This document shows positions 13,038 to 54,643 of a stretch of 64,000 nt of DNA, one piece after another. The translations under genes and the position numbers were made by a program. Each line of letters opens with the position of its first letter. Positions within the stretch are counted from its first letter, which is position 1. The stretch comes from Escherichia phage APCEc01. The notes beneath the pieces were generated by a model. The model was not told where the DNA came from and did no database searches. It worked only from the letters and a program-made list of their open reading frames with translations. Location: sequence record NC_029091.1, one strand, 5' to 3'.

Positions 13038-13080
13038 GTTTACATGCTGATAGGACTATGTTATAGTAGTCCTATCAAAA
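13038..13080 (+). promoter_or_regulatory. early promoter with stem-loop, repeat family A
   Basis: GTTTACA at 13038-13044, TATAGT at 13062-13067, palindrome ATAGGACTAT...ATAGTAGTCCTAT spanning the -10. Confidence 0.6.
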
Positions 13081-21411: not shown

Positions 21412-21455
21412 GTGTACAAACTGATAGGACTATGTTATAGTAGTCCTATTAAAAC
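21412..21455 (+). promoter_or_regulatory. early promoter with stem-loop, repeat family A
   Basis: GTGTACA -35, TATAGT at 21436-21441, palindrome ATAGGACTAT...ATAGTAGTCCTAT. Confidence 0.6.
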
Positions 21456-22954: not shown

Positions 22955-23187
22955 GTATAGCAATTTACATTAAATCAGAATCATGTGATAGTTATCTGTA
23001 CACATATGATAAAGATGTGTCAGAAGAAAAAATCAAAGACGACCTTAATATGGACCTTGATATGTTCTGTCCTATTGCAGATTACAAACTTGCGGTCTCT
23101 AATAGTGAAAGTCCATCTAAAGAAACGCGCATTGAAGAATTTATGTCCGAATTAATGGCCAAATCATGGGACCGAGATGATGAGTAA
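22951..23187 (+). CDS. hypothetical acidic protein
   Basis: 78-aa product from second ATG. Confidence 0.45.
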   Translation: MSIAIYIKSESCDSYLYTYDKDVSEEKIKDDLNMDLDMFCPIADYKLAVSNSESPSKETRIEEFMSELMAKSWDRDDE

Positions 23188-23635
23188 GAAAAATAAAGTG
23201 AAAGAACTATCAGCCGGTATTATTTTCCTTACCGAAGATAAAGAATTATTCATGGGGCGTGTAACTGGTTCTCGTCCTAAAGGTGCATTAGCTCATCGGT
23301 GGGATATTCCTAAAGGCCGTGTCGAACCTGGCGAATCTCCTATTGAAGCCGCTATTCGTGAATGCGAAGAAGAAACTGGGTTTACACAATATGACCCTGC
23401 CTTCCTGAAAGACCTAGGTGAACATCATTACTCAGACAATAAGAATATTCATCTGTTCCTATATACCATCCCTGTAGAGCACGAGCAATTCAGAAACAGT
23501 GTTTGTAATTCCTATCATACATTCCCAGACGGACGACAGATTCCTGAATTTGATGCATTCGCTTTAATTAAACCTTCTCAATGGGAATATGTAATGGGTA
23601 AATCATTATATAAGGTGCTCACTACACTCCTATAA
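23177..23635 (+). CDS. nudE: Nudix hydrolase (NudE-like)
   Basis: 152 aa with Nudix box GRVEPGESPIEAAIRECEEETGF; directly upstream of lysozyme as in T4 (e.1). Confidence 0.85.
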   Translation: MMSKKNKVKELSAGIIFLTEDKELFMGRVTGSRPKGALAHRWDIPKGRVEPGESPIEAAIRECEEETGFTQYDPAFLKDLGEHHYSDNKNIHLFLYTIPVEHEQFRNSVCNSYHTFPDGRQIPEFDAFALIKPSQWEYVMGKSLYKVLTTLL

Positions 23636-23642
23636 GTAATAA

Positions 23643-23668
23643 ATACCTCCTATAAACGTGGGAGGTAT
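23643..23668 (+). promoter_or_regulatory. hairpin sequestering the gene e ribosome-binding site, late-promoter-like loop
   Basis: Perfect 8-bp stem ATACCTCC/GGAGGTAT; 3' arm is the Shine-Dalgarno 2 nt before the ATG; loop TATAAACGTG resembles TATAAATA. Confidence 0.6.
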
Positions 23669-23669
23669 T

Positions 23670-24158
23670 ATGAATATATTTGAAATGCTTCGTAATGACG
23701 AAGGTCTTAGACTGACTTTATACAAAGACACTGAAGGCTTTTGGACGATTGGCATAGGCCATTTAGTAACAAAGAACCCGTCTTTAGCCGTAGCTAAAGC
23801 TGAACTTGACAGAATGATCGGTCGTAAATGCAACGGTACAATTACCCTTGATGAGGCTGAAAAGCTATTTAATGAAGACGTTGATAAAGCCGTCCGCGGA
23901 ATCTTGGGTAATGCTAAACTTAAACCGGTATATGATTCTTTAGACGCAGTTCGTCGGTGTGCATTGGTCAATATGGTCTTCCAAATGGGTGTAGCAGGAG
24001 TCGCCGGTTTTACTAATTCTCTTCGTATGCTTCAACAGAAACGTTGGGATGAAGCGGCAGTAAATCTAGCCCAATCTAAATGGTATCGTCAGACACCTAA
24101 TCGCGCGAAACGCGTAATCTCAACATTTAAAACAGGAACTTGGAAAGCGTATATATGA
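23670..24158 (+). CDS. e: endolysin, T4 lysozyme family
   Basis: 162-aa product [32 protein letters not shown]..., close to T4 lysozyme. Confidence 0.95.
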
Positions 24159-25239: not shown

Positions 25240-25554
25240 ATGAAAACGTATAAAGAATTTATTGCAGAATCCGCCAACCAACGCGTTGAAGGTGGTTATA
25301 TTTGGATTGAACAAGTTGAGCCACCGAGCCGCACTTCTACAGGTAAATGGAAAATTACTGTTGACGGTCCTGGCGGTAAACGTAGGACTCTTAAAGAAAT
25401 TAACGGGTACTATGAAGAAGCTCTTTCGGATGCAGGAACTTACATGATGCAAATCATGATTAAAAACCCTGAAAACCGTTTTGCAGCTAAAGTCTTCCGT
25501 CGTATTGGTAATAAACTTTATGATGCATACTCTAAAAACTTCCCTAAAGAATAA
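25240..25554 (+). CDS. internal protein candidate with capsid-targeting N-terminus
   Basis: 104 aa starting MKTYKEFIAES. Confidence 0.65.
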   Translation: MKTYKEFIAESANQRVEGGYIWIEQVEPPSRTSTGKWKITVDGPGGKRRTLKEINGYYEEALSDAGTYMMQIMIKNPENRFAAKVFRRIGNKLYDAYSKNFPKE

Positions 25555-31075: not shown

Positions 31076-31288
31076 ATGCAGCAATTAAACGAAAGACAAC
31101 TTCGTAATCTTACTGTAACCCAATTAGATGAAATCCGAAGAGAATTAGGACATTCTATTTCTCATTTAAACGAGGATATCCGTCAAACTGGTTCTAAAGC
31201 TGATTATACACGCAAGCGCAAGCTGGAAAAATACCTCACAGATGTTAAGGCCGTCCAAAGGCGAAAAATAAATACTGGCCAAAATTAA
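31076..31288 (+). CDS. hypothetical basic protein
   Basis: 70-aa ORF. Confidence 0.45.
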
Positions 31289-31300
31289 CAGGAGGCCTAT

Positions 31301-31603
31301 ATGGCCTTAAGAGCGATAGCTGTCATAGCGATGCTGGGGTTTTTTGCAGCAACAACTCCTATCGTTGGTACTGCACATATCGACCCATATTTTGATAACT
31401 TTATGGAATCAGGGATTAAAAACGTATATACTTTGTTTGAAATTCAAAATGTCGAGAATTCTGAAAAATTCTATAAGTATATGGCAAAGCATTACAAAAA
31501 TAGCCCCTGTGATGATGCATTTGAATGTCATGAACAAGGCATAAAAACTGCCAGACAATTTGCCGAGTTCATGAAAATAAAATTAGAGCCTACATCTATC
31601 TAA
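31301..31603 (+). CDS. rI: lysis inhibition regulator rI
   Basis: 100 aa, N-terminal membrane anchor, ...DPYFDNFMESGIKNVYTLFE...CDDAFEC..., close to T4 RI. Confidence 0.88.
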   Translation: MALRAIAVIAMLGFFAATTPIVGTAHIDPYFDNFMESGIKNVYTLFEIQNVENSEKFYKYMAKHYKNSPCDDAFECHEQGIKTARQFAEFMKIKLEPTSI

Positions 31604-41857: not shown

Positions 41858-42283
41858 ATGAATATTTCTGAAACTCGCGGTAAATGGTTCAAGATTGTTA
41901 AAGAAGATGAAGAACTACAAGTCAAGTTTCCTGAATTAAAGAAAGATACGATCATCAAGGTAATTGGTACTACTACCGAAGATGGTTATGGCGACCATGG
42001 CATTATTGAAGTGATGTTGTCTACCGGTGAGAAACTTTGCATCTATGACCGTGATACTTCTCTTTGGTGCTTCTGGGAATCACATTCAATAGATGAACTC
42101 GAAGAAATTGATTCGGCTGATATTGCGGATGTGCTAGGTAGTAAACTTGGTGAATTCGAAGGTGAACGAATTTCTTATGCATTAGCTAAATTAGCTGGAC
42201 AAGAAAATAACGACGGCTATGAAGGTAACCTGATGCAAGCAGCCGCAGAATACATTGAATATTTAGAAAGACGTTTAAGTTAA
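41858..42283 (+). CDS. hypothetical acidic protein
   Basis: 141-aa product from internal ATG (MNISETRGKWFKIVKE...); directly upstream of gene 49. Confidence 0.5.
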   Translation: MNISETRGKWFKIVKEDEELQVKFPELKKDTIIKVIGTTTEDGYGDHGIIEVMLSTGEKLCIYDRDTSLWCFWESHSIDELEEIDSADIADVLGSKLGEFEGERISYALAKLAGQENNDGYEGNLMQAAAEYIEYLERRLS

Positions 42284-42288
42284 TAAAT

Positions 42289-42313
42289 ACCCTTATCTAT
42301 TTAAGGTAAGGGT
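42289..42313 (+). promoter_or_regulatory. hairpin over the gene 49 translation initiation region
   Basis: 7-bp stem ACCCTTA/TAAGGGT; the 3' arm overlaps the RBS 6 nt before the ATG. Confidence 0.5.
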
Positions 42314-42318
42314 TTATC

Positions 42319-42792
42319 ATGTTATTATCAGGCGCAAAATATAAAGAAGAAAAACAAAAATTTTATGATGCACAGAACGGTAAGTGTCCTATTTGCCACC
42401 GTGAATTAGACCCTGATGTTCAAGGTAACCATCTTGACCACGACCACGAATTAAACGGGCCAAAAGCCGGTAGAGTTCGTGGATTACTCTGTAATCTGTG
42501 CAACGCAGCAGAAGGCCAAATGAAGCATAAGTTCAATCGTTCCGGTCTTAAAGGACGTGATGTTGACTACCTCGAATGGCTTGAAGCTCTTCTTGCTTAT
42601 TTGAAACAAGATTATTCTGATAATAATATCCATCCTAATTTTGTTCCAGACAAAACTAAAGAGTTCTCAAGACTAGGTAAAGAGGAAATGATGGCTGAGA
42701 TGCTTCAAAGAGGATTTGAATATAATGAATCTGACACCAAAACACAGTTAATAGCTTCATTTAAGAAGCAGCTTAGAAAGAGTTTAAAATGA
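42319..42792 (+). CDS. 49: endonuclease VII (Holliday junction resolvase) gp49
   Basis: 157 aa, MLLSGAKYKEEKQKFYDAQNGKCPICHREL...HLDHDHELNGPKAG..., close to T4 gp49. Confidence 0.93.
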   Translation: MLLSGAKYKEEKQKFYDAQNGKCPICHRELDPDVQGNHLDHDHELNGPKAGRVRGLLCNLCNAAEGQMKHKFNRSGLKGRDVDYLEWLEALLAYLKQDYSDNNIHPNFVPDKTKEFSRLGKEEMMAEMLQRGFEYNESDTKTQLIASFKKQLRKSLK

Positions 42793-47246: not shown

Positions 47247-47290
47247 ATGTACAACGATAGGAAGATATGTTATTATCTTCCTATCGTCTT
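47247..47290 (+). promoter_or_regulatory. early promoter with stem-loop
   Basis: ATGTACA -35, TATTAT at 47271-47276, 12-bp inverted repeat GATAGGAAGATA/TATCTTCCTATC. Confidence 0.55.
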
Positions 47291-48508: not shown

Positions 48509-49066
48509 ATGACTGAACAAAAACCTAAAAATAACTATGTGAATAATAAAGAGCTTCTCGCCGCTATAATCGAGTGGAAAAAGGAGCTCTTAAATAATAA
48601 AGACCCAAACAAAATTATTCGTCAGAATGATACCATCGGTTTAGCAATTATGCTTATCGCCGAAGGCCTGTCCAAACGTTTCAACTTTTCAGGATATACC
48701 CAGTCTTGGAAGCAGGAGATGATTGCAGATGGGATTGAAGCCTCTATTAAGGGACTTCATAATTTCGACGAAACTAAGTACAATAACCCACATGCATACA
48801 TAACTCGAGCTTGTTTTAATGCTTTTGTCCAACGTATCAAAAAAGAACGTAAGGAAGTTGCAAAGAAATATAGTTACTTCGTTCATAATGTCTACGACAG
48901 TCATGACGATGATATGGTAGCGTTGGTAGATGAAACGTTTATTCAAGACATCTACGATAAAATGACGCATTATGAAGAATCCGCTTATAAAGCTCCTGGG
49001 GCTGAAAAGAAGGAAGTTGTTAGCGATTCGCCTAGTTTGGATTTTTTATATGAGGATGACAATTGA
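48509..49066 (+). CDS. 55: late-transcription sigma factor gp55
   Basis: 185-aa product [35 protein letters not shown]...[44 protein letters not shown]..., close to T4 gp55. Confidence 0.93.
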
Positions 49067-53956: not shown

Positions 53957-54643
53957 ATGAAACTGTCTAAAGATACTATCGCTATTCTGAAAAACTTTGC
54001 CTCTATTAACTCTGGCATTCTGCTGAGTCAAGGTAAATTTATTATGACTCGTGCAGTTAATGGCACCACTTATGCGGAAGCAAATATCTCTGATGAAATT
54101 GATTTTGACGTAGCACTTTATGATTTGAATAGCTTCTTAAGCATTTTGAGTCTAGTGTCTGATGATGCCGAAATTTCAATGCATACTGATGGCAATATTA
54201 AAATTGCAGATACACGTTCCACAGTTTATTGGCCTGCTGCCGACAAGAGCACCATTGTTTTTCCTAATAAGCCAATTCAATTCCCAGTGGCTTCTGTGAT
54301 TACTGAAATTAAAGCTGAAGACCTTCAACAATTGCTTCGAGTTTCACGTGGACTTCAGATTGATACAATTGCTATTACAAATAAAGATGGTAAAATTGTT
54401 ATCAATGGCTATAATAAAGTTGAAGATTCCGGACTAACTCGTCCTAAGTATTCTTTGACTCTTACTGATTATGACGGTTCTAATAACTTTAACTTCGTAA
54501 TCAATATGGCTAATATGAAAATCCAGCCAGGTAACTATAAAGTAATGTTGTGGGGAGCTGGTGATAAAGTTGCAGCTAAGTTTGAAAGCTCTCAAGTAAG
54601 TTATGTTATTGCGATGGAAGCCGATTCTACTCACGACTTCTAA
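53957..54643 (+). CDS. 45: sliding clamp gp45
   Basis: 228-aa product MKLSKDTIAILKNFASINSGILLSQGKFIMTRAVNGTTYAEANISDEIDFDVALYDLNSFL..., T4/RB69-type clamp. Confidence 0.95.
   Translation: MKLSKDTIAILKNFASINSGILLSQGKFIMTRAVNGTTYAEANISDEIDFDVALYDLNSFLSILSLVSDDAEISMHTDGNIKIADTRSTVYWPAADKSTIVFPNKPIQFPVASVITEIKAEDLQQLLRVSRGLQIDTIAITNKDGKIVINGYNKVEDSGLTRPKYSLTLTDYDGSNNFNFVINMANMKIQPGNYKVMLWGAGDKVAAKFESSQVSYVIAMEADSTHDF

Follow-up and report, generated by a model that had tools for sequence, protein, structure and literature searches.

The lysozyme gene e in the stretch of DNA analysed here (64,000 nucleotides of Escherichia phage APCEc01, NC_029091.1, hereafter the window) is preceded by an inverted repeat that takes in its ribosome-binding site. 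This raises the question of whether the e leader keeps early messages silent and lets late messages be translated, as in phage T4, and which promoter would then provide the late messages. In T4, a hairpin of the e mRNA, with late promoters internal to it, controls translation (McPheeters et al. 1986, cited in PMC3014915), the effect being roughly 100-fold (PMC3014915). Uzan and Miller stated in 2010 that e leaders of this kind, in which the part encoding the 5' strand holds a T4-type late promoter, are predicted in closely related phages, and RB69 is not named in the passages of that review that list the phages without the structure or without the gene (PMC3014915).

The product of the e reading frame aligns, over residues 1-161, with residues 1-161 of the T4 lysozyme structures (E 2.5e-89). 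Since the alignment begins at residue 1 of T4 lysozyme, the ATG at 23670 is taken as the e start. The stop codon of the gene upstream, nudE, is a TAA at 23633-23635, 6 nt before the hairpin; the distance from nudE to e is 34 nt and both genes belong to a co-oriented early gene block. The order nudE, e, internal protein (ip) and denV is the one found in T4 and RB69. The e region is 98-99% identical to that of Mosigvirus (RB69-like) phages, e.g. FP43 and SHSML-52-1, and the window, judged by its sequence, is that of a Mosigvirus (RB69-like) phage. From the nudE stop to the ATG, the RB69 e leader is identical to that of the window, with no difference in any element. Two proteins of the late transcription apparatus, gp55 and gp45, are encoded in the window, and gene 33 lies outside of it. 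The coordinates of the features are collected in Table 1.

Table 1 Features of the e locus and related features of the window, positions in the 64,000-nt stretch.
Feature	Position	Strand	Details
Nearest sigma-70-type early-promoter-like site upstream of e	21413..21441	+	TGTACA-17-TATAGT with TG; matches RB69 predicted Pe:67959 (Nolan 2006 supplement)
nudE (e.1), Nudix hydrolase	23177..23635	+	ORF; Pfam NUDIX 2.4e-16; relatives annotated nudix hydrolase
Putative gp55-type late promoter box, AATAAATA	23638..23645	+	-13 to -6, A at -13; each of the 17 distinct e leaders has an (A/T/G)ATAAATA box here
5' arm of the hairpin	23642..23653	+	AATACCTCC gives the 9 Watson-Crick pairs; UAU gives the three inner pairs
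Predicted late e transcript start region	23651..23654	+	+1 is the 6th nt after the 23638 box; -13..-6 geometry from PMC1524935
Loop motif, TATAAACG	23651..23658	+	Degenerate counterpart of the T4 second (loop) late promoter TATAAATA; two mismatches, at -7 and -6
3' arm of the hairpin	23661..23669	+	GGAGGTATT; holds the Shine-Dalgarno GGAGG (23661-23665); abuts the ATG
Gene e, T4-type lysozyme (endolysin), 162 aa	23670..24158	+	Pfam Phage_lysozyme 7.5e-14
gp55, late sigma factor	48509-49063		tblastn, 99.5% to RB69
gp45, sliding clamp	53957-54640		tblastn, 100% to RB69

Both ends of e call for a remark. The RefSeq entry of RB69 starts e at Met6 (NC_004928, 65673), 15 nt downstream of an ATG with the identical leader and Shine-Dalgarno (65673-65688 region). 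As T4 lysozyme aligns from residue 1, and as leader, Shine-Dalgarno and ATG are found 15 nt upstream, the Met6 start is doubtful and is probably a mis-annotation of the start codon, 15 nt too far downstream. At the 3' end, e and the next gene share an ATGA (24155-24158, plus strand), in which the TGA that stops e overlaps the ATG that starts the gene behind it. This downstream gene encodes a small protein starting with MKTYSEF, an N-terminal motif common to internal head proteins, and two more ORFs with an MKTY(K/Q)EF start are found at 25240 and 25580. The ATGA overlap suggests a translational coupling of the internal protein gene to e.

The e leader hairpin is formed by nine Watson-Crick pairs, 23642-23650 with 23661-23669. 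A sequence-only reading of this DNA had described a perfect hairpin with an 8-bp stem, ATACCTCC (23643-23650) and GGAGGTAT (23661-23668), around the loop TATAAACGTG (23651-23660), with the ATG at 23670-23672. The hairpin is real and these positions are exact, but 8 bp is too short a description, the structure having nine Watson-Crick pairs and 12 bp in RNA and being, therefore, stronger than described; likewise, the gap of two nucleotides claimed before the ATG is wrong, as the 8-bp arm ends one nucleotide before it. The ninth pair, A23642-T23669, brings the stem up against the ATG, and in RNA the inner pairs U23651.G23660, A23652-U23659 and U23653.G23658 extend it to a helix of 12 bp with an AAAC tetraloop. 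The anti-Shine-Dalgarno CCTCC (23646-23650) falls at promoter positions -5 to -1, and 4 nt (TATT) separate the GGAGG from the ATG.

Folding of the RNA, which the sequence-only reading had proposed as a check, recovered the 12-bp hairpin with the GGAGG buried. The 36-nt hairpin segment showed a folding energy of -16.3 kcal/mol compared to -4.9 ± 2.2 kcal/mol in 200 dinucleotide shuffles (z -5.2), none of which was as good. In an 81-nt context the 12-bp helix dominates the fold, and the hairpin is kept in longer folded contexts too. A scan of 23300-24000 against Rfam returned, at E ≤ 1, only mir-1912, with 24.2 bits compared to a gathering score of 72; being so far below this score, the match was rejected as spurious, an artefact of a generic hairpin.

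A perfect 9-bp hairpin as such is not rare in the 64-kb window, where we counted 13 nested hits, corresponding to 6 distinct hairpins, compared to 4.2 ± 2.0 hits in shuffles. The rarity of the repeat was therefore dropped as an argument, and the case for the e hairpin comes from its position and its conservation rather than from the repeat alone. What goes beyond chance is the placement of the hairpin over the Shine-Dalgarno and the start codon, together with its conservation in relatives.

From 54 loci with lysozyme relatives in IMG/VR, the 23 with at least 60% identity, together with T4 and the window, yielded 17 distinct leaders, the e lysozymes of the compared phages being 60-100% identical. 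All 17 exhibit an (A/T/G)ATAAATA box, an anti-Shine-Dalgarno pentamer at -5 to -1 and a hairpin over the Shine-Dalgarno. In every one of them, NATAAATA is followed at once by the pentamer, which is CCTCC, CCTTC, CTCCT, CCTCT or CCCCT. In the more distant lysozyme homologues (L024 onward), this arrangement of box and hairpin was not found. The MAFFT alignment mis-registers the 5' arm of the L010-type leaders, and a per-sequence analysis anchored on the Shine-Dalgarno was used instead. In the resulting table, each of the 16 leader types has all four core positions of its Shine-Dalgarno paired. Beyond this core, the window and T4 types lengthen the stem outward, on the ATG side, whereas the L010 type lengthens it inward, on the loop side. 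Loop and flanks diverge among the leaders and the register of the stem shifts, yet the Shine-Dalgarno is always covered. In the L021 leader, a C-G pair replaces U-A, a compensatory change by which the GGAGG becomes GGGGG.

In-register pairing reached 76%, compared to 32-60% in every slid register. Formal covariation, calculated on the MAFFT alignment, was not significant (0.120, a value reached by 123 of 500 shuffles), and we attribute its weakness to the arms being nearly invariant, since the ribosome-binding site makes up one of them and the promoter overlaps the other. A scan of IMG/VR with a pattern for RB69-type leaders bearing any 4-nt loop variant gave a single contig, too few for loop variation within Mosigvirus to be followed.

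The near-chance frequency of such repeats and the covariation statistics would fit an inverted repeat that arose by chance or is neutral, or a hairpin that serves RNA stability in general, with no role in the timing of translation. Such a repeat would, however, have to lie precisely over the Shine-Dalgarno and start codon, to be kept in all the distinct leaders despite the divergence of the lysozymes, loops and flanks and the shifts of register, and to be accompanied each time by a late box; the experimental precedent of T4 (PMC3014915) also speaks against it. Conservation among relatives excludes, in our view, a chance repeat, and a hairpin without a role in timing is extremely improbable.

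The same hairpin could also be read as an intrinsic terminator, or an attenuator, at the end of the nudE early transcription unit. It is labelled 'putative transcriptional terminator, -12.00' in the record of vB_EcoM_G53 (MK327943, 64255-64278), and its stem is, indeed, stable, fairly GC-rich and placed directly 3' of the nudE stop. However, the U-tract of an intrinsic terminator does not follow the stem, the next bases being AUGAAUAUAUUU, and the hairpin was called neither by our terminator scan of the window nor by TransTerm for RB69. In addition, early transcription is known to continue into e in T4 (PMC3014915) and the 3' arm is the e ribosome-binding site in every relative. We regard a terminator here as highly improbable, and the label in vB_EcoM_G53 is probably that of a mislabelled ribosome-binding-site hairpin.

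The start of the 5' arm is overlapped by the conserved box AATAAATA, the likely promoter, which the sequence-only reading did not mention. As this box is directly followed by CCTCC at -5 to -1, late transcripts are predicted to begin near 23651. By sequence and promoter geometry, such transcripts would be without the whole CCUCC arm, and the upstream box would then explain how late transcripts escape from the hairpin.

T4 late promoters span -13 to -6, and RB69 and other relatives have either A or T at -13 (PMC1524935). In a list of 50 T4 late sites, 32 are perfect, 9 have an A at -13 and all but two of the rest show a single deviation (PMC2988020). For comparison, from the 31 late promoters that Nolan et al. 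(2006) predicted for RB69 we extracted 20 sites. ATAAATA is present in 19 of these 20 sites and three of them are identical to AATAAATA; a site with deviations at both -7 and -6 is not among the 20. In the window, AATAAATA is also found upstream of gene 49 (42282) and of an rI-like gene (31267). RB69 has TATAAATA where gene 49 of the window has AATAAATA, so that T and A at -13 are interchangeable. Considering that the same variant occurs among the RB69 predicted sites, the T4 sites with A at -13 and the gene 49 and rI-like sites of the window, the box at 23638 is by its sequence an ordinary late box. It is likely the functional late promoter of e, equivalent to the upstream e promoter of T4.

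Two observations have to be set against this assignment. The -5 to -1 segment of the e box, CCTCC, is GC-rich, which counts against a promoter, AT-rich DNA being usual at these positions of late promoters (PMC2988020); nevertheless, the mapped e promoter of T4 itself has CCTTC there. Moreover, a late promoter at RB69 e (about 65.7 kb) is not in the published list of the HMM scan (Nolan 2006, supplement S5). Because the box is identical to A(-13) sites accepted in the same list, we read this as a miss by the 43-nt HMM.

The sequence-only reading had looked for the promoter in the loop, where TATAAACG occupies the position of the second TATAAATA of T4. If this motif were a working late promoter, late transcripts would start in the 3' half of the structure. 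It retains the bases at -12, -9 and -8, which gp55 inserts into pockets (PMC7892883), and variant late promoters are usable in vitro (PMC2988020). However, it agrees with the late consensus TATAAATA at 6 of 8 positions, whereas a T4 late promoter would be expected to deviate at one position at most, typically -13, as 48 of the 50 listed sites do, only 2 having more than one deviation (PMC2988020); its own two deviations, at -7 and -6, occur together in 0 of the 20 extracted RB69 sites. The loop is 2 nt shorter than that of T4, which places the predicted start inside the Shine-Dalgarno: the +1 near 23664 would cut into GGAGG and leave GG and a 6-nt leader. Among the 17 distinct leaders, a second box in the loop is restricted to the T4-type ones, other loops reading, e.g., TATACTCA, ATCAATTA or ATTAGAGG. 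The description of the loop as late-promoter-like is, thus, right as to its position and fails on the match and on conservation outside the T4 type. As a late promoter, TATAAACG is probably inactive and a working one is quite improbable, with weak activity being possible by virtue of the retained pocket bases.

Two related arrangements would set this lineage apart from T4. Gene e of the RB69/Mosigvirus lineage could have the A(-13) box, with its GC-rich -5 to -1 segment, as its sole late promoter, the T4-like loop promoter having decayed or never arisen; or the remnant TATAAACG could fire weakly and yield an e mRNA that is almost leaderless, having 6 nt before the start codon. We consider this unlikely. 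If it were true, by way of a sole A(-13) promoter or of a weakly firing TATAAACG, the timing and the amount of lysozyme would be set differently from T4.

Using RNAs with different 5' ends, we calculated the cost of single-stranding 23661-23672. RNAs starting at 23500, 23600 or 23630 gave computed costs of 14.0-16.8 kcal/mol, compared to 6.2 kcal/mol for RNAs starting at 23650-23653, i.e. a computed gap in accessibility of about 8-11 kcal/mol between read-through and late RNA in the window. For the 17 distinct leaders, the mean cost was 14.3 kcal/mol in the read-through RNA and 4.3 kcal/mol in the late RNA, with a minimum difference of 6.9 kcal/mol. The modelled gap is consistent with the roughly 100-fold effect in T4. 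In the predicted late transcript, a residual structure, which pairing between GGAGGUAUU and codons 6-9 can form (region of AAUGCUUC; 23661-23700, plus strand), takes about 6 kcal/mol to open. As a counterpoint to silencing, a ribosome stopping at nudE, 6 nt upstream, could briefly open the hairpin and allow some early e translation.

Early read-through into e is plausible in this phage, from the gene layout and by analogy with T4. The genes upstream of e are all on the same strand and closely packed, and the early-promoter-like site at 21413..21441 is the presumed source of the read-through transcripts. Between this site and e, a terminator was found neither by our scan nor in the published TransTerm list of RB69.

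Three similar perfect DNA palindromes (e.g. GATAGGACTATGTTATAGTAGTCCTATC) lie over sigma-70-type early promoters of the window, at 13048-13077, 21424-21449 and 47256-47285 (plus strand). They present a -35 element, GTTTACA or GTGTACA, just upstream, an extended -10, TGTTATAGT, at the centre and a 3' arm that covers the start site. Each may act as an operator or, as another possibility, form a hairpin in read-through RNA. Several early promoters of RB43 coincide with 9-bp 'terminators' (Nolan 2006 supplements).

The comparison with T4 defines what has been kept at e. The T4 e leader reads TTTTATAAATACCTTCTATAAATACTTAGGAGGTATTATG and holds two perfect late boxes TATAAATA, the first overlapping the beginning of the 5' arm and the second situated in the loop. 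The window shares with it the orthologous gene, the nudE neighbour, the same 3' arm and Shine-Dalgarno (GGAGGTATT, then ATG), a late box over the start of the 5' arm, the anti-Shine-Dalgarno at -5 to -1 and a similar computed rise in opening cost. The distance from the nudE stop to the stem is 6 nt, compared to 7 nt in T4. Unlike T4, the window has one box, with an A at -13, plus the degenerate TATAAACG, its loop is shorter by 2 nt, and its stem presents a C-G pair where T4 has U.G, as well as the extra inner pairs and the AAAC tetraloop.

The same logic, a ribosome-binding site sequestered in early or middle read-through RNA, is known for T4 gene 49 (endonuclease VII), soc and I-TevI (PMC3014915). 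There, too, the 5' arm contains or adjoins a late promoter, as at e; the genes differ and their stem sequences are unrelated. In the window, gene 49 (endonuclease VII; tblastn 42319-42777) is preceded, at 42282-42321 (plus strand), by AATAAATA and then directly by the 5' arm ACCCTTATC, with the 3' arm GGTAAGGGT just before the ATG; in its sequence this is the same box-plus-hairpin design as at e. The RB69 equivalent has TATAAATA at the box, and TransTerm called that hairpin a terminator. At the rI-like gene (MALRAIAV...; 31267-31310, plus strand), AATAAATA lies upstream, and the ATG and part of an AGGAGG Shine-Dalgarno are enclosed by a short AGGCC/GGCCT hairpin.

The e leader is very probably the RB69-lineage copy of the translational timing device of T4 gene e, as sequence, modelling and the T4 analogy indicate. 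Early in infection, host RNA polymerase would start at upstream early promoters, the nearest candidate being at about 21413-21441, and read through nudE into e. In this long RNA, 23642-23669 would fold into the 12-bp hairpin and lock the GGAGG and the base before the AUG, so that ribosomes would rarely initiate and no lysozyme would be made prematurely. Late in infection, the polymerase carrying gp55 would recognise AATAAATA at 23638-23645, and the transcripts from near 23651, having no 5' arm and no hairpin, would be translated. We infer read-through, the late start site and differential translation from T4. The T4-like control that the sequence-only reading had seen as conserved is, thus, supported by the hairpin, the gene, the leader layout and the opening costs, with the correction that it would work via the upstream AATAAATA and not via TATAAACG in the loop.

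The sequence elements, the fold, its energetics, the gene identities and the conservation are established directly here, and the device to which they very probably belong in this phage is an already known, conserved T4 mechanism (McPheeters 1986; conservation reviewed in 2010). In practical terms, the e hairpin should be kept free of the terminator label that it bears in at least one GenBank record, and the e start codon is the ATG that abuts the stem. Beyond annotation the finding is of little importance: the classic endolysin-silencing device of T4 would be kept in an RB69-like phage, and its likely promoter motif can now be named.
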